From an uncultured Actinomycetota bacterium (GTDB lineage: Bacteria; Actinomycetota; Thermoleophilia; RBG-16-64-13): DNA of 64,000 nucleotides. The notes below the pieces were generated by a model. It was given only the letters and a program-made list of their open reading frames with translations, ran no database searches and was not told where the DNA came from. The position numbers were made by a program, and so were the translations under genes. Positions 7,365 through 23,308 of this stretch are shown here, one piece after another (position 1 is the first letter of the stretch; each line of letters opens with the position of its first letter). The stretch spans positions 32,812 through 96,811 of the forward strand of contig CAWGGI010000004.1 in the NCBI GenBank assembly GCA_963822135.1, given 5' to 3'.

Positions 7365-8041
7365 CTACAACAGAGGCTGGAACTTGGCGAGCCACTCGCG
7401 CGCCACGGCCGCGCGGTCACTCAGGTCGAGCTCCCGCAGCTGCTTGTCGGGCATGAGCTCGATCACGCGATCGGCGAGCTGCAGCACTTCGGTGAGGTCG
7501 TGGGTCACATAGACGGCGGTGGTCCGGTTCTCCCTCAGTATCCGCTGCAGCATGACCATCAAGGCCGCCTTGAGGGTTGCGTCCATCCCGGTGAACGGCT
7601 CGTCCAGCAGCAGGACGGCCGGCTCCACCGAAAGCGCGCGCGCCACCGAGACCCGCTGAGCCATCCCGCCGCTCAATTCGGCGGGGTGATAGTGCTCGAA
7701 CCCCGCAAGATCCACCCGGGCAAGCCAGCGCAGCGGCCTTCTCCCGGGCCTCGGCCTTGGGTATGCCTTTGGCGCGAAGCGGCGCAGCCACGTTGTCGAG
7801 GGCAGTGCGCCACGGAAGCAGGCGCGGCTCCTGGAACACGTACCCCACCACGCCCTCGGCCACCTGCACGCGTCCCCTCATCGGGGCTGAAGATGCCGGT
7901 GATGAGCTTGAGGATGGTGGTCTTTCCCGCTCCGGACGGCCCCACCACCCCCATGATCTGCCCCGTTTCGATGTGAAACGAGAGATCGTGCAGGACCTCG
8001 AGGGAATCGAAGGACTTGGTCACATGCTCGAACGTGATCAT
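7365..8041 (-). CDS. ABC transporter ATP-binding protein, NitT/TauT (nitrate/sulfonate/bicarbonate) type; two frame changes
   Basis: Walker [11 protein letters not shown]-loop [11 protein letters not shown], signature [15 protein letters not shown], Walker B LLLLDEPF and H-loop VTHD. These lie in three frames (ORFs 7673..8041, 7417..7881, 7365..7715), with shifts near 7880 and 7725. Confidence 0.8.
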
Positions 8042-10341: not shown

Positions 10342-10370
10342 TTGACGAGATATCCCCAGAAGAGTAGATT
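10342..10370 (+). promoter_or_regulatory. Sigma-70-type promoter of rex: TTGACG - 17 nt - TAGATT
   Basis: Hexamers at 10342-10347 and 10365-10370 with a 17-nt spacer, 47 nt upstream of the rex start, in a locally AT-richer patch. Confidence 0.45.
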
Positions 10371-10405
10371 GTGAAACGCATAACAACGTTGTGACGAGCG
10401 TAACA
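10369..10405 (+). promoter_or_regulatory. Two tandem Rex-operator-like sites overlapping the -10 and transcription start region
   Basis: TTGTGAAACGCATAACAA (10369-10386) and TTGTGACGAGCGTAACA (10389-10405). Compare the Rex consensus TTGTGAA-N4/6-TTCACAA; the right half-sites are degenerate. Confidence 0.4.
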
Positions 10406-10416
10406 CTGGGGAAAGA

Positions 10417-11496
10417 GTGGCGACTGTCGCGAAGCCCGTGGTCTCGCGGAGGACGGTGCAGAGGCTCAGCCTCTATAGGCGCCTGCTCACCGACCTCAAG
10501 AGGACCGGCACTACCAGCATCTACTCCCACCAACTCGCCCATCTCGCCGGGGTGAGCGCCGCGCAGGTGCGCAGGGACTTCATGGTGATCGGCTACTCGG
10601 GCAGTCCCAACCGTGGCTATCAACTCGACACCTGCCTGGCCAGCATCGAGGACCTCCTCGACGGGACCACGCGACAGGATGTGGCCCTCGTCGGTCTCGG
10701 TCGGCTCGGGCACTCCGTCCTGGCGCACTTCGCCGGCCGACGCCCGCTCCTGAGGATCGCCGCCGGCTTCGACACCGATCCAGGGCTCATCGGCACCTCG
10801 GTGGAGGGGTGCCCCGTGTATGCGATGGCCGATCTCGAGCGCATCGTCAAGCAGAAGGCCATCAGGGTAGCCATCCTCGCAGTACCGTCGGAAAGGGCGC
10901 AGGCGGTGGCCGAGTCGCTGGTGCGGGCCGGGGTACGAAGCATCGTGGACTTCACCTCGATCCCCCTGCGCGTGCCGGAGAACGTTTTCGTGAGGCAGAT
11001 GGACATCACCTCGGCGCTGGAGACCGCAGCCTTCTTCGCCCGCCAGGAGGGGGACGGGGAGGCCGACGTCGAGAACGGGGGCGACATCGGCTCCGAAGCC
11101 GAGATGGAGCCCATCATCAACACTATCGACTCACTTCTCGCGGGGGCCGACATGAGACTGGACGAGCTCGCACTCCGGATCGGGGCCAAGGTGCTGACCC
11201 CCGGTCCCGCGGATGCACAGGTGACGAAGATCTACGCGGGCGACCGCGTCAGCGACCTCCTCAACGAGGCCTCGCGCAAGACGCTGCTGGTGACGAACCT
11301 GGCCAACCTGCAGATGGTGCGGGTGGCCGAGTTGATGGAGGTTCCGGGAATCTGTTTCGTGGACGGAGTGGAGCCGGAGTCGGACATGGTCGACCTCGCG
11401 CTGCGCAACCACACCATGCTGATGGTATCCCCGGTCGGGGTGTTCGAGACCTGCGGCCTGATCTACCAGCTGCTCACCGGGAACGGCCAGAGCTAG
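10417..11496 (+). CDS. rex: Redox-sensing repressor Rex fused to a C-terminal DRTGG-type domain
   Basis: Residues 1-215: Rex winged helix (RRTVQRLSLYRRLL, ISSHQLA-like IYSHQLAHLAGVSAAQVRRD) plus Rossmann domain (VALVGLGRLGHSVL). An acidic linker follows. Residues 235-359 parallel the stand-alone DRTGG protein at 13165 (LDELALRIGAKVLTPG...IYAGDRVSDLL...LLVTNLAN...MLMVSPVGVFETCGLIYQLL). Confidence 0.8.
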   Translation: MATVAKPVVSRRTVQRLSLYRRLLTDLKRTGTTSIYSHQLAHLAGVSAAQVRRDFMVIGYSGSPNRGYQLDTCLASIEDLLDGTTRQDVALVGLGRLGHSVLAHFAGRRPLLRIAAGFDTDPGLIGTSVEGCPVYAMADLERIVKQKAIRVAILAVPSERAQAVAESLVRAGVRSIVDFTSIPLRVPENVFVRQMDITSALETAAFFARQEGDGEADVENGGDIGSEAEMEPIINTIDSLLAGADMRLDELALRIGAKVLTPGPADAQVTKIYAGDRVSDLLNEASRKTLLVTNLANLQMVRVAELMEVPGICFVDGVEPESDMVDLALRNHTMLMVSPVGVFETCGLIYQLLTGNGQS

Positions 11497-11506
11497 GAGA
11501 ACGCAC

Positions 11507-13168
11507 GTGGTGGAGTTCGTCTCATACGACATCGAGGGCAACGACTTTCGCCAAGCCGGTGCGGCATCCCGCTCCATCAAGGAGCACCTCAAGCGCATCG
11601 GAGCCGACGCCGAGGCGATCCGACGGACGATGATCGCCGCCTACGAGGCGGAGATGAACGTGGTCATCCATTCGGCCGGGGGTCGGCTGGAAGCCTCCCT
11701 CAGCGATTCGCAGATAGATGTGAATGTCATCGACGAGGGCCCGGGGATCCCCGATATCGACCAGGCCATGACCGAAGGCTTCTCCACGGCCAGCGCCGAG
11801 GCTCGCGCGCTCGGCTTCGGAGCCGGTATGGGCCTGCCCAATATCCAGCGAAACAGCGATCGCCTGCGGGTGACATCGCGGGTGGACGAGGGCACCCGTG
11901 TGAACTTCACCATCTACCTCAAGCCCGAGACGACACGCAAGGCGCCTTCCATCTCTCTGTATGCCTCCGCCGACAAGTGCCGCGACTGCGGGGCCTGCCT
12001 CCCGGCCTGCCCCACCCACGCCATGCGCGTGTGGAGCGGCCGCCCCAGCGTGCTCGAGCACCTCTGCATCGACTGTGCCGAGTGCATCGCCGTATGCACG
12101 AGCGACGCCCTTACCGTTGCCACCGAGTTCTCGTCGTTGGAAGACTTGAGCGATCGCGAGCACATGGTGCTCGCCGTGCCCCCGGCACTGCTGGCGGGCT
12201 GCGGCCCTGAATACCCGCCGGCAGCGGTCTTCGGGACGCTGGAGGAGCTGGGCTTCGCCGCAGGTGGTCACCGTCGCACCCTACGAGGATGCTCTCCGGC
12301 AGGCCGTCCTTGCCGCAGGGTCGGGACCGCTGATCGTCCCCTCGTGCCCCGCGGTGACGAACCTCATCGAACTGCGCTTCCCCTCGCTCGTCCCGTCGCT
12401 CGCGGCCTACGACTCGCCCTGGGAGGCCGTGCAGACGGCCTACGCAGGGCGCCGAGTGGCCTACGTGGTCTCCTGCCCCAGCCAGCGCTCGGCGCTGCTG
12501 CAGCAGGCGGAGGCCGCGGCCGCCGATGGCGGCGCGCTGCCCCGGCCTGAGTTCCTTATGCCCGAATGGGTGCGACAGGCGGTAATGAAGCGGCTCACCC
12601 AAGGGGAGCAGCCCAGCCGGCCGCCTCTTCGTCGCAGGTGGCTTCGCCACAGGTGCCCGAGTCGCAGGCGGGTCCGTCGGACGCGGGTCCGTCGCAGGCC
12701 GCTTCTCCGCTCGTCGTCACCGGCGTCCGCAACGTGCTGGCCGTCCTCGAGCAGATGGAGAACGGCCTGCTGGGGGACGTCGCGATCGTGGAGCCGTATG
12801 CCTGTGAGGGAGGGTGCTTCGGCTCGCCTCTGCTCTTCGAGAGTCATCAGGTGGCGACGCGCCGCTGGGAGCAGGGAAGAGATGCGCTCAGGCTGGCCGC
12901 GGGAGGCGAGGCAGCCCTCTCGGCCCCGCCCGCGGCTCTGCGCCGGCAGCCGTTCGCCGCCCGTCCCGGCATCAGACTCGATCCGGACATGTCCGAGGCC
13001 ATCCAGAAACTCGGCAGGATCCAGATGATCCGACGCTCGTTCCCCGGCAAGGACTGCGGGGTGTGCGGAGCGCCCACCTGTGCGGCGCTGGCCGAAGACG
13101 TGGTCCTCAAACGAGCCGCTGTGGACCTGTGCCCGTACCGCTTCGAGAACACGGAGGTGGACTCGTGA
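11507..13168 (+). CDS. Putative sensory protein: RsbW/SpoIIAB-like kinase domain, 2x[4Fe-4S], [FeFe]-hydrogenase-like H-domain, C-terminal Fe-S domain (HfsC/HfsB-like fusion); two frame changes
   Basis: HATPase_c (NVVIHSAGG..., DEGPGIPD, GFGAGMGLPN). Ferredoxin motifs CRDCGACLPACP and CIDCAECIAVCT. Hydrogenase-like motifs VPSCPAV, VVSCPSQRS and YACEGGCFGSP. C-terminal CGVCGAPTCAALAEDVVLKRAAVDLC. Built from ORFs 11507.., 12264.. and 12566.., with shifts near 12265 and 12600. RBS AGGAG before the GTG at 11507. Confidence 0.7.
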
Positions 13169-13513
13169 CGCTTCACGAACTGCATCGCTGCCCTGGGTCT
13201 TCGCGAGCTCACCCCCATCGGCGACGGGAACGACGTGATCAGCCACGGATACGCCTCCGACCTGCTGAGCGACGTGCTGGCTCACGCTCCGGCGGGAGGG
13301 GTTCTGGTGACCTTGCAGGTGCATCTGAACGTCATCGCGGTGGCCAGCCACGCCGGCATGCGGGCCGTCATCTTCTCCAGCAGCCGGATGCCCGACGACG
13401 AGATCATCGAACGGGCCACCGCCGAGGGGTTGTCCCTCCTCAGCTCGTCCGCCGACACCTTCGAGATCGTGGGACGGCTGTACGAATCCGGCATCCGCGG
13501 AGGCGGGGCATAG
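13165..13513 (+). CDS. DRTGG domain protein (one frame change near 13183)
   Basis: GTG at 13165 overlaps the upstream stop (GTGA). VTLHEL / IAAALGLRELTPIGDGNDVISHGYASDLLSDVLAHA...VTLQVHLNVIAVAS...FEIVGRLYESG matches the hydrogenase-cluster DRTGG proteins. Confidence 0.65.
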
Positions 13514-13557
13514 AGCCTTGCGGAAGGAAACCATGCTTGAACGACGAGACTCCAGCG

Positions 13558-14334
13558 ATGCCAAGCCTCAGACGCTTCCGGGCCGACCTGCACATCCACA
13601 CCGGTCTTTCACCCTGTGGATCCGAGGAGATGACGCCCGCGGCGATCGTTGCGGCAGCGAAGGAGCTGGGACTTGACATGATCGCCGTCTGTGATCACAA
13701 CTCCGCGGGCAACGTCGCCGCCGTGCAGGAGGCCAACCGGCACGCGGACTCCACCCTTACCGTGCTCGCGGGTATCGAGGTGACCAGCATGGAGGAGGTC
13801 CACGTGGTGGGGCTCTTCCCCGGTGCGGCCGCGGCGGCGCGCGTCGCAGACCGGCTCCGGGATCTCCTGCCGCAGGCCGAGGGAGACTACTACTCCTACT
13901 TCGGACACCAGCTTCTTCTGGACGCGAACGGCGACCAGGTGGGAAGCGAGACGGCCGCTCTGGCCTTCGCCACCCCGCTCGACCTCACCGACACCGTGCG
14001 GCTGGTGCACGATGAGGGCGGCCTGGCTGTGGCGGCCCACGTCGACCGCCGGTCGTTCAGCGTCTTCTCGCAGTTGGGCTTCTTCCCTGCCGACGCCGGC
14101 TTCGACGCCATCGAGCTGTCCCTCAGGCGCCGTACGGAACCGTCTCGCGCAGCCGAATTCGCCCGCTTGGGCCTGCCGATGGTCGCGTCCTCGGACAGCC
14201 ACTACCTGGACGAGATCGGCAGGGCCTTCACCGACGTGTACGCGCTCGAACCCACGTTCGAAGAGCTGGCCTTGGCCTTCGCGAGCGAAGAGGGCCGGAG
14301 TGTCACTCCCGTTTGGAGGGATACCGATGCATGA
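13558..14334 (+). CDS. PHP-domain phosphoesterase (HfsD-like)
   Basis: FRADLHIHTGLSPCGS, IAVCDHNS, GIEVTS, AAHVDR and SSDSHY are the PHP metal-binding motifs. ATG at 13558 within ORF 12814..14334. Confidence 0.8.
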   Translation: MPSLRRFRADLHIHTGLSPCGSEEMTPAAIVAAAKELGLDMIAVCDHNSAGNVAAVQEANRHADSTLTVLAGIEVTSMEEVHVVGLFPGAAAAARVADRLRDLLPQAEGDYYSYFGHQLLLDANGDQVGSETAALAFATPLDLTDTVRLVHDEGGLAVAAHVDRRSFSVFSQLGFFPADAGFDAIELSLRRRTEPSRAAEFARLGLPMVASSDSHYLDEIGRAFTDVYALEPTFEELALAFASEEGRSVTPVWRDTDA

Positions 14335-14848
14335 CCTGTCGCTGTATCTGCTGGAAGTGCTGGTGAACTCCGTACGCGCGGGAGCAGGCCGGGTGGACAT
14401 CGCCGTGGTGATCGACCGCGCGACCGACCAGCTGCGGCTCACCGTGGACGACGACGGACCCGGGCTGGCGACGACGCCCGAGCAGACGCTGGACCCCTTC
14501 TACACGACCAAGCCCGGCAAGAAGACCGGCCTGGGTCTGAGCCTGTTGAAAGCCGATGCCCAGGCAGCGGGGGGCGACCTCGCCATCGGGCCTTCCCCCA
14601 CCCTCGGTGGAACCAGAGTGGAGGCCTGGATGAACTTCGACCACGTCGACCGGCCGCCGCTGGGAGATCTGGCCAGTTCCATCGTGGTGAGCGCCGTCAC
14701 CAACCCTGGAGTCGATTTCACCGTGAGTCTAGGAGGAGACGAGTTCGTCCCCCCGCTTGTCAAGGCGCCGCCCATCGAGGCTGCGTTCTTGCTCCAGCGG
14801 CACACGGAGGAACTCTCGAAGATAAACCCGAGCGAAAGGGAGTCATGA
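14327..14848 (+). CDS. Histidine-kinase-like ATPase (HATPase_c only) of [FeFe]-hydrogenase operons
   Basis: LLEVLVNSVRAG..., DDDGPGL, FYTTKPGKKTGLGLSLL. ATG at 14327 overlaps the PHP gene stop. Confidence 0.7.
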   Translation: MHDLSLYLLEVLVNSVRAGAGRVDIAVVIDRATDQLRLTVDDDGPGLATTPEQTLDPFYTTKPGKKTGLGLSLLKADAQAAGGDLAIGPSPTLGGTRVEAWMNFDHVDRPPLGDLASSIVVSAVTNPGVDFTVSLGGDEFVPPLVKAPPIEAAFLLQRHTEELSKINPSERES

Positions 14849-15435
14849 GCATGACCGACGATGTGGCAAGAGCGGACGGCTGCTCCAGCTGCGAAGAGGC
14901 TTCCGAGGAGGAGCTTCTCGCCCGCTTGGACGAGATCATCGCGAGCTACAAGGACAAGCCGGGTGCACTCATCCCGGTGCTGCAGATGGCGCAGGGCATC
15001 TTCGGCTACTTGCCCGAGGTGGCGTTGAAGCGCATCGCGAAGGGCATGCACAAGTCCTACAGCGAGGTAGCGGGTGTGGTCGGCTTCTATTCGTTCTTCT
15101 CGACCGTACCCCGAGGCCGCAACCTGGTCCGCGTCTGTCTGGGTACCGCCTGCTACGTGCGCGGAGGCATGAGGGTCCTCGAGGCCCTCAAGAAGGAGCT
15201 GGGGATCGACGTGGGCGAGACCACCGAAGACCGGGAGTTCTCCTTGGAAGTGGCGCGCTGCTTCGGCGCCTGCGGACTGGCGCCCGTCATCACCATCAAC
15301 GACGTGGTCCATCACCGGGTGAAACCCGCCCGTATCAACGAGGTGCTCGCTCAGTACGCTCCGGCGCCGGCGGCCGTCGCTGCCGAGGGCCTGACGCCGG
15401 AACCGGCGATCGCTGGGGAAAGGAGCGCCCGATGA
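14845..15435 (+). CDS. hydC: NuoE-like [2Fe-2S] subunit of NAD(P)-linked [FeFe] hydrogenase (HydC)
   Basis: ALIPVLQMAQ..., VCLGTACYVRG, ARCFGACGLAPV (the four NuoE cysteines). ATGA overlaps at both ends. Confidence 0.9.
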   Translation: MSMTDDVARADGCSSCEEASEEELLARLDEIIASYKDKPGALIPVLQMAQGIFGYLPEVALKRIAKGMHKSYSEVAGVVGFYSFFSTVPRGRNLVRVCLGTACYVRGGMRVLEALKKELGIDVGETTEDREFSLEVARCFGACGLAPVITINDVVHHRVKPARINEVLAQYAPAPAAVAAEGLTPEPAIAGERSAR

Positions 15436-15809
15436 CCGAGAAGATCAAGAGCCCGGCCGAACTGCTCGCCATGGCCGCAAAGGCGAAGGAAGACATCGAT
15501 CTTCGCTCCGGCGCCAAGGAGATCAAAGTGACCGTGCATATGGGCACCTGCGGGATCGCCGCCGGGGCCAGGGACGTAGTGGTCTCCTTCCTCACCGAGA
15601 TCGCGGACGCCGAGCTCAACAATGTCACCGTGCACCAGTCCGGCTGTGCCGGTCTCTGCGAGATGGAGCCCATGGCCACCATCCAGTTCGCGGATGGGGC
15701 TGTCTATCACTACGGTCATCTGGAGGACAGGAGCAAGGTCCGCGAGATCGTCCGCTCGCATCTCGTAGAGAACGATCCCCTGCCCGAGTACCTCGTCCAC
15801 TCGTCGTAA
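15432..15809 (+). CDS. Thioredoxin-like [2Fe-2S] ferredoxin
   Basis: VTVHMGTCGIAAGA ... QSGCAGLCEMEP pattern; 125 aa. Confidence 0.8.
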   Translation: MTEKIKSPAELLAMAAKAKEDIDLRSGAKEIKVTVHMGTCGIAAGARDVVVSFLTEIADAELNNVTVHQSGCAGLCEMEPMATIQFADGAVYHYGHLEDRSKVREIVRSHLVENDPLPEYLVHSS

Positions 15810-15841
15810 GCGTCCCGCCACCGGATAGCTAAGGAACGGAT

Positions 15842-18800
15842 ATGGATCAGATCAGCAACCACGTACTCGTCTGCACCGGCGGTGGGTGCATCGCGTCCGG
15901 AGCTCTGGAGGTCAGCGCCGCGTTCACCAAGGAGCTCGAAGACCTGGGGATCGAACGGCAGACCCGCGTCATCGAGACCGGCTGCCTCGGCCCCTGCGCC
16001 GTCGGACCGGTCGTCCTCGTGTACCCGGACGGCGTCTTCTACCAGAACGTCAAGATCGAGGATGTCCACGAGATCGTCGAGGAGCATCTGCTCAAGGGCC
16101 GCGTGGTCACCCGGCTGGTGAGCCACGCTCCCGGCACCGACCGCTCCGTCGCCGAGATGAGCGACGTGGAGTTCTTCAACCGCCAGGTCAAGATCGTCCT
16201 GCGCAACTCGGGGATCATCGACCCGCTCAAGATCGAGGAGTACATCGCCCGCGACGGCTACCAGGCGCTGGCCAAGGTGCTCACCGAGATGACGCCCGAG
16301 CAGGTGGTCGAGCGAGGTCCTGCGCAGCGGCCTGCGCGGCCGCGGCGGCGCCGGCTTCTCCACCGGGCTGAAGTGGAAGTTCGCCGGCAAGACCGAGTCG
16401 CGACGCGAAGTACGTCCTCTGCAACGCCGACGAAGGCGACCCCGGCGCCTTCATGGACCGCTCGCGTCCTGGAGGGCGACCCGCACAGCCGTCATCGAAG
16501 GCATGACCATCGGCGCCTACGCCATCGGCGCCAAGGAGGGCTACGTCTACGTGCGGGCCGAGTATCCGCTGGCCGTCGAGCGGCTGCAGCTACGCCATCG
16601 ACCAGGCCACGAGATACGGGTCTGCTCGGCAAGGACATCATGGGCACCGGCTTCGACTTCGACCTCGAGATCCGCATGGGAGCCGGCGCCTTCGTCTGCG
16701 GCGAGGAGACCGCCCTGATGCCTCCATCGAGGGCAAGCGCGGCGAGCCGCGGCCGCGGCCGCCGTTCCCGGCCGTGAAGGGTCTGTGGGACAAGCCCAGC
16801 GTGCTCAACAACGTCGAGACCTTCGCCAACATCGCCCGCCATCATCCTCAAGGGCGCCGAATGGTTCGCGCGCCATCGGCACCGAGAAGAGCAAGGGCAC
16901 CAAGGTCTTCGCCCTCGGCGGGGCCAGGTCAACAACACCGGCCTCGTCGAGGTGCCGATGGGCATCCCGCTGGGCGAGATCGTCTACGACATCGGCGGCG
17001 GCATGCCCGAGCGGCAAGAAGTTCAAGGCCGCGCAGATCGGCGGTCCCTCCGGCGGCTGCATCCCGCGCCAGCACCTGAACGTGCCGGTCGACTACGAGA
17101 TCGCTGCAGGAGCTGGGCGCCATCATGGGCTCCGGCGGCCTGATCGTCATGGACGAGGACACCTGCATGGTCGACGTCGCCCGGTTCTTCCTCGACTTCA
17201 TCCAGGACGAGACCTGCGGCAAGTGCCCGCCCTGCCGGGTGGGCACCAAGCGCATGCTCGAGATCCTCACCCGCATCTGCAACGGGCAGGGCGAGGAGGG
17301 CGACATCGAGAAGCTCGAACGACCTGGGCAGCATCATCAAGGACACCGCGCTCTGCGGCCTCGGCCAGACGGCGCCCAACCCGGTGCTCTCGACCATCCG
17401 CCACTTCCGCCACGAGTACGAGGCCCACATCCAGCGACCAGCACTGCGAGGCCGGGCGTCTGCTCGACGCATGTTCACGGCCCCGTGCAGCAACGCCTGC
17501 CCGGCCAGCGTCAACGTGCCCGGCTTCGTCAGTCTCATCGGCGAGAAGCGCTTCGACGAGGCCCTGCACGCTGCACCGCGAACGCAACCCGTTGGCCAGT
17601 ATCTGCGGCCGGGTCTGCTTCCATCCCTGCGAGAGCAAGTGCCAGCGCGGCTCGCTCGACGAGGCGGTGGCCATCCGCGGCCTCAAGCGCTTCATGACCG
17701 AGCAGGAGACCGAGGTCGCAGCTGCCCAGAGTCCTCGAGAACGCCGAGAACGCGGCGCGCAAGGTGGCCGTCATCGGCGCCGGCCCGGCCGGCCTGTCCT
17801 GCGCCTACTTCCTGGCCCGCCTGGGCTACAAGCCCACCATCTTCGAGAAGGAACCGAGCGCGGGCGGCATGCTCGTCCAGGCCATTCCCGCCTACCGGCT
17901 GCCCCGCGAGGAGTTGGGCCGCGAGATCAGCATGATCGAGAGCCTGGGCGCCACCATCAAGACCGGCAAGGCCCTCGGCACGCGACTTCACCCTGGCCGA
18001 CCTGCGCGAACAGGGCTACGAGGCAGTGTTCCTCGGCGTGGGCGCTCCGGCCGGGGTCGCGCTTGGGCATCCCCGGCGAGAGGCGGCGAAGGGGTCACCG
18101 AAGGCGCTGACCTTCCTGCGCGAGTACAACGTGCACGGCACGGCCGAGGTGGGTGAGGAAGTGGCCATGGTCGGCGGGGGCAACTCCGCCATCGACGCGG
18201 CGCGCACCGCCCTGCGCCTGGGCGCCGAAGCACGTCACCATCCTCTACCGCCGCCAGCGCGAGCAGATGCCCGCCTGGGCCGAGGAGATCAACGCCGCCG
18301 ACGAGGAGGGCATCACCGTCCTGCCTCTGACGGCTCCCAAGCAGATCCTGCGCGACGCCCAGGGCAAGGTGGTGGGCGTGCTCTGTCAGCGGATGGCGTT
18401 GGGCGACTACGACAGGAGCGGCCGCCGCCAGCCGGTGGCCGGCCGCAACCCGGACTTCACGGTGCGCTGCGACCAGGTGATCGCCGCGATCGGCCAGGCC
18501 CTCGACGCGAAAGCGCTCGTCGGCGACCTGCCGGTGGAACTCCGGAAGGGGTGGATCAGTGACCGACGGCACGACCGGCGCGACCAGCGTCGACTGGCTC
18601 TTCGCCGGCGGCGACGCCGTCACCGGTCCCGCCTCGGTGGTGGAGGCCGTCGGGCCGGAGAGCGGGCCGCGGTAGCCATCGACCAGCACCTCACCGGAGC
18701 CAACCACGCCTTCTGGCGGCGCGATATCGCCGTCGACGTGTTCTTCGATCCCGATGCCGACCCGGTGGCTACTCCCCGGGCCGCGGTCGTATGCCTCGAT

Positions 18801-18946
18801 CCCGAACTGCGCGCCTGCACCTTCGACGAGGTCGAGCTGTCGTGGACCCTCGACACCGCCTGTGCCGAGGCGAAGCGATGCCTGCGCTGCGACTACGGCA
18901 AGGTACCCGTACCGGCCGCCGATCTGCCGAGGAAGAGGTGGACTGA
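15842..18946 (+). pseudogene. hydB: NuoF-like flavoprotein (HydB) fused to a GltD/NfnB-like NAD(P)H oxidoreductase; about 26 frame changes as assembled
   Basis: N-terminal 2Fe-2S ([23 protein letters not shown]). NuoF core ([63 protein letters not shown]). It then runs directly into GltD-like [62 protein letters not shown]. Extra bases at 16313, 16401, 16465, 16490, 16590 and 16609, a missing base near 16725, and further shifts through 18928. Fragments correspond to ORFs 15842.., 16503.., 16774.., 17125.., 17384.., 16785.., 17764.., 18026.. and 18153... Confidence 0.8.
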
Positions 18947-20732
18947 TGCCGATCCTCACCATCGACGACAACAGAGTCGAAGTGCCCGAGGGCACCATCG
19001 CTGCTGGACGCCTGCCGGCAGGCAGGCGCGCACATCCCCACCCTCTGCTACCTGGAGGGCGTGCAGGCCATCGGGGCCTGCCGCCTGTGCCTGGTCGAAG
19101 TGGAGGGCGCCCGCACGCTGGTGGCGTCGTGCGCCCAGCCGGCGACCGAAGGCATGGTGGTCAAGACCAACACGCCGCGGGTCCGCAGAGGCGCGGCGGG
19201 CGGTCGTGCGAGTTGCTGCTCTCCGAGCACGACGGCGACTGCCAAACCTGCGTCCGCAACGGCGACTGCGAGCTGCAGAGCATCGCCAGAGATCTGGCAC
19301 GTCGACACCATCACCTACGAGGGCGAGCAAGGCCCGGCAGGTCATCGACGACTCCACCCCGGCGCTCATGCGCGACACCGGCAAGTGCATCATGTGCCGC
19401 CGCTGCGTCACGGTCTGCAACCAGATCCAGGGCGTGGGCGCGCTGTTCCCGCAGAACCGCGGCTTCGCCACCGTCATCGGCCCGGCCTTCGGCGGCGACC
19501 TCGCCGACGTGGTGTGCGTCCAGTGCGGCCAGTGCGCCGCCGTCTGCCCGGTGGGCGCCATCACCGAGAACAGCGCCATCGACCGGGTGTGGGCGGCGCT
19601 GGACGACCCCGACAAGCACGTCGTCGTCCAGACCGCGCCCGCGATCCGCGGCCGCCCTGGGCGAGGAGTTCGGCTACGCGCCCGGCACCCTGGTGACCGG
19701 CAAGATGGTCGTCGGCCCTGCGCCGGCTGCGGCTTCGACGAGGTCTTCGACACGAACTTCACCGCCGACCTGACCATCATGGAGGAGGGCACCGAGCTGC
19801 TCACCCGCCTCAAGAAGGCGCTCGGTCGACAAGCGAGCAGGTGGCCCTGCCCATGTTCACCAGCTGCTCCCCGGGCTGGATCAACTACATGGAGCACTTC
19901 AATCCCGACATGCTGGCCAACCTCTCCACCTGCAAGTCGCCGCAGCAGATGCTCGGCGCGCTGGCCAAGACCTACTACGCCGAGAAGATGGGCATCGAAG
20001 CCCGAGGACATGGTGGTGGTCTCGGTCATGCCCTGCACGGCCAAGAAGTTCGAGTGCACCCGGCCGGAGATGATCCGACAGCGGCTGCCAGGACGTCGAC
20101 ATGGTGCTCACCACCCGCGAACTCGCCCGCATGATCAAGCAGGCCGGCATCGACTTCCGCATCCTGCCCGACGGCCAGATGGACCGGCCCCTCGGGCATG
20201 TCCACGGGCGCGGCCGACATCTTCGCCGTCACCGGCGGCGTGATGGAGGCGGCCCTGCGCACCGCCTACGAGATCGTCACCGGCAAGCCCTTCCCCTTCG
20301 CCGGCCTGCACGTGCAGCCCATCGCCGGGCTCGAGGGCGTCAAGGAGGCCGCGGTCACCATCGAGGGGACCGTGCCGGAGTGGGCGTTCCTCAAGGGCGC
20401 CACGCTCAAAGTGGCCGTGGCCCACGGCCTGGCCAACGCGCAGAAGGTGATCGACCGCATCCGCTCGGGCGAGGCCGAGTACCACTTCGTCGAGGTCATG
20501 ACCTGTCCGGGCGGCTGCATCGGCGGCGGCGGGCAGCCCCGCCTCACCTCCGACGCGGTGCGCGCAGGCCCGCATCCGCGCCATCTACGCCGAGGACGAG
20601 AGTCGCGAACTGCGCAAGTCGCACGAGAACCCCGACGTCCAGAAGCTCTACGAGGAGATGCTGGGCAGCCCGCTCGGCGAACTCTCCCACAAGCTGCTTC
20701 ACACCAAGTACACGGAGAAAGAAAGGGTATAG
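18946..20732 (+). pseudogene. hydA: [FeFe]-hydrogenase catalytic subunit HydA, copy 1; at least 10 frame changes as assembled
   Basis: ATG at 18946 after AGGAAGAGGTGG. N-terminal 2Fe-2S (CRLCLVEVEG) and FeS domains (CIMCRRCVTVC, CVQCGQCAAVCP). H-cluster motifs FTSCSPGW, MPCTAKKFE and VEVMTCPGGCIGGGGQP. Tail LLHTKYTEKERV with stop at 20730-20732. Pieces lie in all three frames (ORFs 18754.., 19061.., 18153.., 19841.., 20198..). Confidence 0.85.
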
Positions 20733-20774
20733 AGCGCTTGACCGCGATGCCAGTGCCGGCCCCAGTGCTATCGT

Positions 20775-21286
20775 GTGGATACCATGACACCTGAGGACAC
20801 CATGATGACCGATGAGCCCGCGCTCATATTGATCGTCGACGACGACTTCGATTTTCTCGAGCTCAACCGTCTGATCCTCGAGAGAGCGGGCTATCGCGTC
20901 ACCACAGCCGCGGACCCGAGGCAGGCCCTCCGCGCCATGGCGCAGGAGAAGCCGGCTCTGGTGATCACCGACCTCATGATGACCAGTCCGGATTCGGGCT
21001 TCTCGTTCAGCCGGGCCATCAAGGAGGAGCCGGCCTACGCGGACATCCCGGTCATCATCGCCACGTCGGTATCCGCCGCCCTGGGCCTGGATTTCCGGCC
21101 CCGTTCCGCCGATGACCGCGCCACCATGAACGTCGATGCCTATTTCGACAAGCCTCTCGACGCCGCGCGCCTGCTCGCCACGGTGGCCGAACTCCTCGCC
21201 GCGGGGAAAGCGGACGCGGCCGAAGAACCCGCGGCGGCGTCGAGGGAGCCGCCGCGGAACCGGCTCCCTCGGAAGCGAGCGAGTGA
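20775..21286 (+). CDS. Stand-alone response-regulator receiver protein
   Basis: LILIVDDD..., VITDLMMTSPDSG, DAYFDKPL. The annotated frame reads on to 21656. A TGA at 21284-21286 in the -1 frame, overlapping the next ATG, suggests an indel in the Ala/Pro/Glu tail near 21235. Confidence 0.7.
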
Positions 21287-23308
21287 TGTCTGTCCAGGAC
21301 AACGCGCTCGTCACCATCATCGGCGAGCGCTGCCGAATGTGCTACGCCTGCATCCGCGAATGCCCGGCCCGAGCCATCCAGGTGGTGGACGGACAGGCCA
21401 GCGTCATGCCGCAGCGCTGCATCGGCTGCGGCAACTGCGTCAGGGTGTGCAGCCAGAACGCCAAGGCCGTACGGGACGACACCGAGAAGGCCTTCAACCT
21501 CATCGACTCGCGTCTGCGGACGGCGGCCATGGTGGCCCCCAGCTTTCCCGCGGAGTTCACCGACATCGAGCCCGGACGTCTGGTGGCTATGATCCGCGCG
21601 CTCGGCTTCTCCTCGGTGCACGAGGTATCGCTGGGCGCCGACCTGGTGGCTTATGAGTATGCCGAGTTGCTGCGCCGGGATCCCGAAGGTCGCTATATCA
21701 CCACCCCGTGCCCGGCCGTGCATTCCTACGTTCGGAAGTACCGGCCGGATCTCACCCGCTTCCTGGCTCCTGTCGCCCCCCCCATGGTGGCGATGGCCAG
21801 GGCGCTGCGTCACGATCTGGGTGACGACCTGCACGTGGTGTTCATAGGGCCCTGTATCGCCAAGAAGTGGGCGTCCATCGACACCACCCACTTGGAGATC
21901 GAGGCGGTCCTCACCTTCGCCGAGCTCAGGCAGATGTTCGAGAAGCGCGGCATCACGCCCGAGGGGGTCACCGCCGAAGACGATTTCGACCCGCCGTATG
22001 GTGGGGTCGGCGCCGTCTTCCCCATCTCGCGGGGGCCTGCTGCAGACCGCCGGGCTCCAGGCCGACCTTCTCTCGGGCGAGATAATCGTCGCCGAGGGCC
22101 GTGACGAGTTCGTCGACGCGCTGGAGGAGTTCGACATCTCCCACACGGGCGCCCGCCTCCTCGACATCCTCTCCTGCCAAGGCTGCTTCGCGGGAGCCGG
22201 CATGACCAGCGACGAGACCAACATGCAGCGCCGCGCCCGCATCAGCAGCTACGCCAATACCCGCATCGCGAACTTCGAGGACGAGCAGCGCGAACAGATC
22301 GCATCAGCCCGGGAGCGCTACAAGGACATCGACCTCGCTCGCGAGTTCGAGGCCGACCCGCAGACTCTCGACAGCCCCGACACGCCCGCGGAGCTCAAGG
22401 AGATCCTGGAGCGGATGGGCAAGCACGGGGAGAAGGATTTCCTCAACTGCGGCGCCTGCGGCTACCACACCTGCCTCGATCATGCTCGGGCCATCTATGC
22501 CGGTCTCGCCGATTCCGAGATGTGCCTTCCCAACACCATCGAGCAACTGCGCACCGCGTACGGCGAACTCGAGGAATCCCACCGCTCTCTGGAGGACGCA
22601 CAGGAGGCGCTGGAGAAGTCCACCAGACTGGCGAGCATGGGGCAGCTGGCGGCCGGCATCGCCCACGAGGTGAACAACCCGCTGGGGATCCTTCTGCTGC
22701 ACGCCAACCTGGCGCTGGAGGAGGCCGAGGAGCACTGCCAGCTTCATGAAGACCTGGCGACCATCGTCGACCAGGCCAACCGCTGCAAGCGCATCATCTC
22801 CGGTCTTCTCAACTTCGCCCGTCAGAGCCGGGTGGTCCGTCAGCCCACCGATCTGGCCGAACTGGTCCAGAAAGTGCTGCATACCTTGCCCGTGAGCGAA
22901 GGGGTGCAGATGGAGGTAGAGGACCGTCTCACGGATGCGGTGGCCGAGATCGACTCCGACCAGATCGTCCAGGTGCTCAGCAACCTGCTGAGTAACGGTC
23001 AGCACGCCATGCCCGATGGCGGCAGGGTCGTGGTGACCCTCACCGACACGCCGGACGAGGTGGTCATCGAGGTCGCCGATACCGGGGTGGGGATCCCCGA
23101 AGAGAACATGAGCAGGCTCTTCGACCCGTTCTTCACCACCAAACAGGTAGGCATGGGGACCGGGCTGGGACTGGCCATCACCCATGGGATCGTCAAGATG
23201 CACCGCGGGCAGATCACCGTCGAATCGAACGCCGACCCGCAGGCCGGTCCCACAGGTACGACCTTCACGGTCCGGCTGCCGCGTTACGAAGAACAAGCGG
23301 CCGCTTAA
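21286..23308 (+). CDS. [FeFe]-hydrogenase-like (HydS-type, group C-like) sensor histidine kinase; one frame change near 22030
   Basis: 2x[4Fe-4S] (CRMCYACIRECP, CIGCGNCVRVCS). H-domain with TTPCPAV, IGPCIAKKW and LSCQGCFAGAG. Extra Fe-S motif CGACGYHTCLDHARAIYAGLADSEMC. HisKA H-box AAGIAHEVNNPLG. HATPase N/G boxes (NLLSNGQHA, DTGVGIP, GTGLGL). Joined from ORFs 21136..22104 and 21998..23308. Confidence 0.8.

Follow-up and report, generated by a model that had tools for sequence, protein, structure and literature searches.

The module analyzed here lies at positions 11507-14848 on the + strand of a 64,000-nt stretch of DNA from an uncultured bacterium of the Actinomycetota (Thermoleophilia); we refer to the whole stretch as the window, and all coordinates are positions in it. 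Our comparative analysis leads us to propose, tentatively, that this locus represents, with its ATPase in fused form, a widespread five-gene module composed of a DRTGG-domain protein (DRTGG-A), a SpoIIAB-type ATPase, a HydS protein resembling the group D (M2e) putative sensory [FeFe]-hydrogenases, a second DRTGG protein (DRTGG-B) and a PHP-family phosphoesterase. Together with an orphan ATPase (HATPase2), the module sits on a NuoE-Fdx-NuoF-HydA operon for a bifurcating-type [FeFe]-hydrogenase, and it might operate as an H2- or redox-gated ATPase acting on DRTGG domains and Rex. In general outline it is a new actinobacterial case of a known association, that of a group C/D-type putative sensory hydrogenase with a kinase-type ATPase near a bifurcating hydrogenase and Rex.

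The gene order is near-universal. The window proteins were mapped onto 80 loci carrying the fused gene, with denominators restricted to loci long enough to judge: DRTGG-A lies immediately upstream of the fusion gene in 78/78 loci, and DRTGG-B (75/79), PHP (73/75) and HATPase2 (71/73) are nearly as constant, as are the hydrogenase genes NuoE (68/69), Fdx (66/68), NuoF (65/66) and HydA (51/55). A second HydS-like gene follows HydA in 38 of 54 loci. A scan with the unfused family recovered the module in at least 597 species of Bacillota, where the order is DRTGG-A, HATPase_c_2, HydS, DRTGG-B, PHP (L085 being a further example) and where, in loci that carry the downstream operon, NuoE, HATPase2, Fdx, NuoF and HydA mostly come next; DRTGG-A was found in 68/72 of these loci, HATPase_c_2 in 73/77, DRTGG-B in 65/76 and PHP in 63/73. 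Moreover, the same components are joined in three alternative ways: ATPase with HydS, Rex with DRTGG-A, and HydS with DRTGG-B (P0261, 545 aa). The last of these occurs at L083:1494-3131 and L084:744-2381, preceded in both cases by a separate 142-aa HATPase_c_2 gene. In two loci, one from a metagenome-assembled genome (MAG) labelled Bathyarchaeia (L078) and one from Hydrogenedentota (L081), the fusion and PHP are accompanied by no match to DRTGG-B and the gene order differs; the archaeal label of the former may reflect binning contamination or gene transfer.

Architecture and reading frame of the fused sensor

Gene 1 of the module runs from a GTG start at 11507 to a TGA stop at 13166-13168, and its product combines four domains. 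A SpoIIAB/RsbW-type GHKL ATPase domain (residues 1-140, 11507-11926) is followed by two [4Fe-4S] ferredoxin motifs (residues ~150-205, 11954-12121), by a divergent [FeFe]-hydrogenase H-domain with an internal low-complexity linker (residues ~215-445, 12149-12841) and by a C-terminal CX2CX4CX16C [4Fe-4S] domain of the RnfB-N-terminal type, which together with the stop codon occupies 13019-13168. On the merged 552-aa translation, Pfam places HATPase_c_2 at residues 15-135 (15-138 together with HATPase_c), a 2x[4Fe-4S] dicluster of the Fer4 families at 152-201 and the PF04060 FeS domain at 512-543 (41.3 bits), and throughout the module it bore out the genes and domains at the positions given by an earlier note made from the letters of this DNA. 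The eight cysteines of the ferredoxin motifs are invariant in homologues, as is the C-terminal motif C517-x2-C520-x4-C525-x16-C542. A sequence search of the PDB with the fusion protein returned weak, domain-level matches only (the RnfB N-terminus 9eri_B, HydA1 and SpoIIAB).

The assignment of the ATPase domain to the SpoIIAB/RsbW type, also proposed in the earlier note, is supported by its superposition on SpoIIAB (1til/1th8) and RsbW (6m36) in Foldseek, with TM scores of 0.75-0.85 and rmsd values of 2-3 Å. The residues of the ATP site, comprising the N-box E47/N51, the G1 motif D76xGxG and the G2 motif GxGxG, are invariant in 120/120 homologues, and the score with the SpoIIAB model TIGR01925, 51 bits where the cut-off demands 135, does not reach equivalog level. 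Hence, judging by these motifs, the N-terminal domain in all probability binds ATP and is an enzyme similar to SpoIIAB, without being its equivalog. No NCBIfam model scored above its cut-off for gene 1, DRTGG-B, PHP or HATPase2.

The earlier note had regarded the union of kinase-like and sensor parts as unusual, and this view does not survive a wider search. There are 1,148 significant homologues of the fusion; the 120 listed all share the four-domain architecture, at lengths of 527-642 aa, and a scan of one genome per species yielded at least 528 species genomes with a full-length relative, distributed over Actinomycetota (Thermoleophilia, Gaiellales), Planctomycetota, Hydrogenedentota, Spirochaetales, Nitrospiraceae and Bradymonadales. 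A HATPase-fused sensory group C hydrogenase has also been noted in groundwater Elusimicrobia, where its gene immediately precedes a trimeric group A hydrogenase and Rex lies nearby (bioRxiv 10.1101/765248). That mention, to which we can liken our protein by description, is made in passing and comes without DRTGG, PHP, Rex-DRTGG or active-site analysis. The fusion is thus genuine, but neither rare nor unreported.

In the window, gene 1 can be read only by passing from frame 2 to frame 0 (~12262-12602) and back to frame 2. We mapped the indels against L001, a JGI metagenome contig with 97% DNA identity over 3 kb and intact open reading frames (ORFs). Relative to it, the window has an additional C near 12261 and lacks one base near 12602, both in the region of the H-domain, and carries balanced indels within the low-complexity linker. 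The corresponding L001 protein (P0001) is an uninterrupted 553-aa ORF with 96% identity over 100% of the merged translation, so that the single fused ORF predicted for gene 1 once its indels were removed is indeed obtained. The two frame changes noticed earlier are both found in the gene 1 sequence of the window, but a third had been missed: an additional C near 13183, inside the DRTGG-B gene, breaks the frame of a protein that L001 encodes as an intact 115-aa ORF and to which P0275 is 100% identical. Further downstream, ~55 single-base insertions with respect to the closest genome locus (L003) split the NuoF-GltD and HydA genes over many changing frames between 16309 and 20563, where the L005 relatives have intact ORFs of 1025 aa (NuoF-GltD-like) and 573 aa (HydA), and one more break lies near 21990 in the gene for a HydS-like protein fused to a histidine kinase.

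These breaks could be taken as genuine, in which case the genes for the sensor and the DRTGG protein, along with a large part of the hydrogenase operon, would be decaying pseudogenes. Their clustering between 11.5 and 22 kb (three in the module, ~55 at 16.3-20.6 kb and one in the second HydS gene), against only two in the 8.5 kb upstream of the module, fits such an interpretation. We nonetheless consider decay very unlikely and the breaks most likely assembly errors, because nearly all of them are single-base insertions, a signature of sequencing error, and because gene 1, read through its three frames, remains 96% identical to the intact protein and bears no other lesion. Many of the closest relatives, in addition, are long-read MAGs, and L003 shows similar frame breaks. 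The two upstream breaks both fall in an ABC-transporter ATPase gene (7377-8041, - strand), which is spread over three frames relative to its L002 orthologue and has intact neighbours.

Partner genes, Rex and the hydrogenase operon

The module is embedded in a compact row of + strand genes spanning 10417-20790 (the G+C content of the whole stretch is ~66%). The row opens with Rex-DRTGG (10417-11496), in which a winged-helix domain and a Rossmann NADH sensor (Pfam Put_DNA-bind_N and CoA_binding; NCBIfam NF003995, 188 bits against a cut-off of 126) are followed by an acidic linker and a C-terminal DRTGG-A domain (residues ~245-355). Pfam does not detect this last domain in the Rex C-terminus, and it is the profile-profile comparison with the stand-alone DRTGG family (hhalign, 99.9% probability, E 8e-34) that establishes the two as paralogues and upholds the claim that the set is headed by Rex-DRTGG. 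The Rex-DRTGG-A fusion occurs in 48/72 loci, all of them Actinomycetota and comprising every actinomycetotal locus that could be judged, while DRTGG-A is a free ORF of ~130 aa in Planctomycetota and Spirochaetales. The long form of Rex (350-410 aa) is represented by at least 120 protein clusters, annotated merely as "redox-sensing transcriptional repressor".

The start of Rex-DRTGG is preceded, at a distance of 31 bp, by a Rex-operator-like palindrome, TTGTGAAACGCATAACAA (10369-10386, given without strand), with 2 mismatches to TTGTGAAnnnnTTCACAA. A like-placed site (at ~-50 to -110) with at most 2 mismatches is present in 14/47 actinomycetotal loci, the background rate being 0.007 per 370 bp. 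In 890 kb of loci, 17 such sites were detected, 14 of them at this position. Because this operator-like site recurs upstream of Rex-DRTGG, the operon is probably autoregulated by this Rex. A weaker match at 434-451, with 3 mismatches, may be noise: chance alone should yield 0.35 matches at this stringency in the window.

DRTGG-B (13165-13513) starts with GTG and is, in its intact L001 form, a stand-alone protein of 115 aa. It scores 26.8 bits with the Pfam DRTGG model (cut-off 25.2), and Foldseek with its AF2 model (pLDDT 91) finds first the DRTGG structure 2ioj, with a TM score of 0.82, followed by 3l2b / the DRTGG domain of CBS-PPase and then by the HprK N-domain; no STAS match was obtained in that search, nor any meaningful match for DRTGG-B in a sequence search of the PDB. 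A STAS-like partner was accordingly discarded as an identity for this protein on the strength of its DRTGG fold. We also considered a universal phospho-acceptor serine, present in DRTGG-B (SDLLSDVL) and absent from DRTGG-A (GDRxSDLL); this pattern holds in clades of the fused family, but in a Bacillota example both paralogues have Cys at that position, and the candidate was dropped. The PHP-family phosphoesterase (13558-14334, 258 aa; Pfam PHP and PHP_C) has metal-ligand motifs, among them the HxH motif DLHIHT, that are conserved across 76 orthologues. HATPase2 (14327-14848; Pfam HATPase_c, 50 bits) is an orphan CA domain of the histidine-kinase type with a C-terminal extension of ~70 aa; its N, G1 and G2 boxes are conserved, it has no HisKA/DHp domain, and its highest NCBIfam scores, none of which comes near the cut-off, are with sensor-kinase CA domains.

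Translational coupling across all four genes of the module, as first suggested, applies at two of the junctions. The stop of gene 1 and the start of DRTGG-B overlap in GTGA, and PHP and HATPase2 overlap by 8 bp (ATGCATGA), but DRTGG-B and PHP are separated by a 44-nt gap. ATGA overlaps link HATPase2 to NuoE and NuoE to Fdx, and the placement of the module directly upstream of the NuoE/Fdx/NuoF-GltD/HydA row was corroborated by Pfam and by the intact L005 orthologues. All on the + strand, these genes, which form the putative target operon, encode NuoE (14845-15435; Pfam 2Fe-2S_thioredx), a small 2Fe-2S ferredoxin-like Fdx (15432-15809), a NuoF-GltD-like fusion (15842 to ~18900; Complex1_51K, NADH_4Fe-4S, Fer4_20 and Pyr_redox_2 in the L005 orthologue) and HydA (~18950-20790; Fe_hyd_lg_C with 332 bits and Fe_hyd_SSU, again in L005). 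The classical HydA motif is TSCCPxW; the HydA encoded here has a single Cys followed by Ser (~19860-19885), and in 56 related loci the motif reads F-T-S-C-S-P-G-W in 39 and FSSCSPGW in 13, with ITSCSPGW in a Bacillota locus.

Beyond HydA, tblastn located two further + strand genes, whose domains were assigned on intact L015 orthologues: a REC-only response regulator (20775 to ~21230; Response_reg) and a HydS-like protein fused to HisKA and HATPase_c (21286-23308). The latter contains Fer4, Fe_hyd_lg_C (135 bits), FeS, HisKA and HATPase_c, and keeps a Lys (GPCIAKK) at the position equivalent to K358 of the hydrogenase CpI. With this second sensor set downstream of HydA, the operon carries two hydrogenase-derived sensors.

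Family and active-site pocket of the H-domain

The hydrogenase origin of the H-domain is supported. Fe_hyd_lg_C scores 40.6 bits on gene 1 against a gathering score of 22.1, although its best stretch (residues 220-308) covers only profile positions 3-105 of 245; it is matched by 30/30 sampled relatives, and Foldseek finds the H-domain fold of CpI, DdH and the HydA of HydABC with a probability of 1.0, at TM scores of ~0.3-0.36 that are low because the query is multi-domain. The domain therefore passes both the hydrogenase model and the fold search. The motifs PSCPAV, SCPSQ and ACEGGC are present and invariant in homologues, and the four cysteines C280, C323, C433 and C437, equivalent to the H-cluster ligands C300, C355, C499 and C503 of CpI, are found in 120/120 of them. 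The proton-relay cysteine (C299) is lacking, as noted before: its position is occupied by S, V, M, A or T, and never by C, in the 120 homologues.

To relate the sensor part to the known groups we relied on its C-terminal residues and on TamHydS, a putative sensory [FeFe]-hydrogenase from Thermoanaerobacter mathranii that is assigned to group D (M2e) and binds a functional H-cluster (PMC8163306). Used as a query against 1.8 billion representatives, the last 187 residues returned 841 matches in two length classes, fused proteins of ~510-600 aa and proteins of ~416-442 aa without the ATPase; among 30 sampled members, all have Fe_hyd_lg_C and FeS, and 7 have the ATPase domain. Profile-profile alignment of the fused and unfused families (hhalign) gives 100% probability and E 2e-75 over residues 147-566 versus 5-414. 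TamHydS itself aligns with residues 150-533 of P0001 at 29% identity (E 4e-49); its sequence was translated from a codon-optimized DNA table read by optical character recognition (OCR) from the supplement of PMC13104023 and contains OCR indels, so that its motifs and the ~29% identity are reliable and single residues are not. The group D signature is present as R-x-R (R174/R176), D-C (D516) and E-D (E530/D531), corresponding to R30/R32, D378 and E392/D393 in TamHydS. A hydroxyl residue replacing M353 is said to be well conserved in M2e in the TamHydS literature; in this region the fused family has V-S-C (Val two residues and Ser one residue before the Cys) and the OCR-derived TamHydS I-S-P-C (Ser two residues before it), a register off by one. 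On these sequence grounds, the sensor part and the group D (M2e) protein TamHydS are related.

The pocket that surrounds the four cysteines presents a different picture. K358 of CpI helps to hold the [2Fe] subcluster, as known from CpI mutagenesis, and so does the segment around F417. In the fused family its equivalent is Gln (Q326) in 118/120 homologues and never Lys, and the equivalents of M353 and M497 are Val and Tyr. The W..GGE element of the F417 region survives in only 1/120 fused homologues, the segment being replaced by a variable Ala/Pro/Ser-rich linker that AF2 models as disordered (pLDDT <50 at residues 370-397 of gene 1) and that causes the P2-to-P3 distance to range over 88-177 residues; the same segment reads GVGWANSGGEAFG in TamHydS, G..W...GGE in unfused relatives and FGATGGVMEAA in HydA. 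The scores with Fe_hyd_lg_C fall in step, from 332 bits in HydA through 135 in the histidine-kinase-linked paralogue and 62-117 in unfused relatives to 38-41 in the fused family. Hence, the H-cluster pocket looks eroded in the fused family. The conservation of the four cysteines gives no proof of [2Fe] binding, because all four also ligate a [4Fe-4S] cubane, and the H2 sensing assumed in the earlier note is weakened to an uncertain proposal by the Gln at the K358 position and by the substitution of a disordered linker for the F417-region element; TamHydS and the unfused relatives keep both the Lys and the element.

Known systems, competing explanations and the proposed mechanism

One known counterpart is TamHydS. 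Group D (M2e) is defined by a 2x[4Fe-4S] N-terminal domain, an H-domain and a C-terminal CX2CX4CX16C motif, without PAS, and a kinase-like ATPase gene adjoins TamHydS near a group A hydrogenase operon (PMC8163306). Gene 1 shares with it the two N-terminal [4Fe-4S] motifs, the H-domain devoid of the proton-relay Cys, the C-terminal motif, the absence of PAS, the R-x-R, D-C and E-D residues, the location by a hydrogenase operon and the association with a kinase-like ATPase. It differs in that the ATPase, a separate gene next to TamHydS, is fused N-terminally, and in that TamHydS keeps the Lys at the K358 position (FISPCAAKVT) and GVGWANSGGEAFG, whereas the window family has SCPSQRS and the disordered linker. 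A published list of 70 group D enzymes in the TamHydS literature includes no Actinomycetota and no Planctomycetota, and a 2026 paper on TamHydS (PMC13104023) still asks for its interaction partners and names them a critical gap, in line with the earlier statement that the mechanism of these systems is unknown. The second window sensor fits literally the HydDB [FeFe] group C1, "histidine kinase-linked (putative)" (PMC5037454). Gene 1 has in common with that group the tie between a putative H2 sensor and a kinase-type ATPase, but its ATPase is of the SpoIIAB type, without HisKA/DHp, and it is hence not a histidine kinase.

The earlier note had likened the module to the hfsABCD locus of Thermoanaerobacterium, and we find this identification barely credible. 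Like hfsABCD and the HydS(PAS)-kinase-phosphatase sets of Ruminococcus albus (group C, M2f), the module sets a hydrogenase-like putative sensor beside phospho-signalling genes in a context of Rex-controlled fermentation genes, and the published description of HfsA likens part of it to a hydrogenase large subunit. In the hfs locus, though, HfsA is joined by a hydrogenase with a PAS domain (HfsB), a Ser phosphatase (HfsC) and a ferredoxin-linked hydrogenase (HfsD) (PMC11837493). Pfam finds no PAS domain, no PP2C/SpoIIE-type phosphatase and no HfsD-type ferredoxin-linked hydrogenase in the module, DRTGG and PHP are foreign to hfs, and the sensor aligns end to end with group D/M2e rather than with the PAS-bearing group C. 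The partner-switching systems of SpoIIAB and RsbW offer another parallel, with which the module shares the ATPase fold, complete ATP-binding motifs, an accompanying phosphoesterase gene and a pair of small paralogous proteins as partners. The module differs from them in lacking STAS, sigma factor and PP2C, the candidate partners having the DRTGG fold and the phosphoesterase being of the PHP type; among the homology-mapped genes of 80 + 80 loci, a survey of mapped genes rather than of every ORF, there was no STAS or sigma gene. Literature searches returned nothing relevant on DRTGG with hydrogenase, on PHP with bifurcating hydrogenase and histidine kinase, or on anti-sigma factor with PHP and Rex, and the Morra 2022 review mentions neither kinases nor group D. 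In the literature searched we thus found no description of the constant DRTGG-A/DRTGG-B/PHP/HATPase2 partner set, of the Rex-DRTGG and HydS-DRTGG fusions or of the apparently eroded pocket of the fused branch.

In the mechanism that we tentatively propose, the Fe-S/H-domain would sense H2, or alternatively how far the ferredoxin/NADH pool is reduced, and would gate the fused SpoIIAB-like ATPase, which in turn would bind and/or phosphorylate both paralogous DRTGG domains, with the PHP enzyme reversing the modification. In the Actinomycetota, where DRTGG-A is part of Rex, this signal would merge with NADH/NAD+ at the operator of the hydrogenase operon. Such a convergence of Rex with H2 or redox state is plausible because the direction of the enzyme depends on NADH, ferredoxin and pH2. 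The scheme would parallel the SpoIIAB / sigma-F / SpoIIAA / SpoIIE partner switch, with DRTGG in the place of STAS and PHP in that of PP2C.

Several considerations weigh against this proposal. The module is known from its genes, and phosphotransfer, binding and response to H2 are all proposals. We know of no precedent for DRTGG as a substrate or partner of a GHKL Ser kinase. The DRTGG fold is unrelated to STAS, and in the D-x-x-S-[DN] motif the Ser is conserved but the neighbouring Ser/Gly/Cys position varies with lineage, so that no clear universal phospho-acceptor emerges. Outside the Actinomycetota DRTGG-A carries no DNA-binding domain, and a transcriptional output is hence not general. The mechanism also leaves the role of HATPase2 unexplained; in Bacillota its gene sits between NuoE and Fdx, a position among structural genes that hints at action on the enzyme complex. 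Finally, with a pocket that appears eroded, H2 may not be the signal.

This last point is the core of an alternative that retains the architecture and dispenses with H2: a [4Fe-4S]-only H-domain, as in eukaryotic Nar1/NARFL-type proteins, would report the ferredoxin/NADH poise, or damage by O2 or NO, to the ATPase. It draws on the whole set of changes in the pocket, namely a K358 position that is never Lys in 120/120 homologues, the missing proton-relay Cys, the Val and Tyr at the M353 and M497 positions, the 'G.GW..GGE' element confined to 1/120 and otherwise yielding to the variable linker, the low and partial Fe_hyd_lg_C scores, and four cysteines that double as [4Fe-4S] subcluster ligands. 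It has to contend with the clear descent of the family from the HydS proteins of group D, among which TamHydS has a functional H-cluster (PMC8163306), with the tight linkage to a hydrogenase operon, which requires the host to possess the HydEFG maturases, and with the invariant Gln326-Arg327, which could replace Lys in binding a cyanide ligand; on balance we regard it as possible but doubtful. Less probable still, and in our view rather improbable, is a purely post-translational action of the module on the HydABC-type enzyme (switching, protection or assembly), with the DRTGG proteins, PHP and the second ATPase as accessory subunits or modifiers. The placement of HATPase2 between structural genes in Bacillota, the want of a DNA-binding domain on DRTGG-A outside the Actinomycetota and the apparent co-transcription of module and enzyme genes, given their overlaps, would all suit it. 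The Rex-DRTGG-A fusion in every judgeable actinomycetotal locus and the conservation of the operator site speak for a transcriptional link instead, and the cryo-EM structures of HydABC (7q4w, 8a6t and 7p8n) are not known to contain subunits other than HydA, HydB and HydC.

A more ambitious formulation, which we hold to be somewhat unlikely, is that the module represents a new type of partner switching or phospho-relay, in which a hydrogenase-derived Fe-S sensor would gate a GHKL ATPase whose partners are DRTGG domains, one tethered to the output (Rex, in the Actinomycetota) and the other a free decoy or substrate reset by PHP. In that case, the three fusions would identify the long-sought interaction partners of the group D HydS proteins and would provide the first defined signalling role for DRTGG domains. 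The wider question is how anaerobes sense the partial pressure of H2 and tune their fermentation and bifurcating hydrogenases accordingly; the sensory [FeFe]-hydrogenases of groups C and D are known spectroscopically, with a gap where their signalling partners should be. Here, far from being a rare oddity, such a sensor keeps one constant set of five partners across considerably more than a thousand species, and its fusions to a SpoIIAB-type ATPase, to DRTGG-B and, by way of DRTGG-A, to Rex yield testable hypotheses as to which component talks to which. In the fused family, moreover, what was an H2 sensor may have become a redox sensor built on [4Fe-4S] clusters alone, and the possible loss of [2Fe] binding in this branch is relevant to the choice of a model protein.

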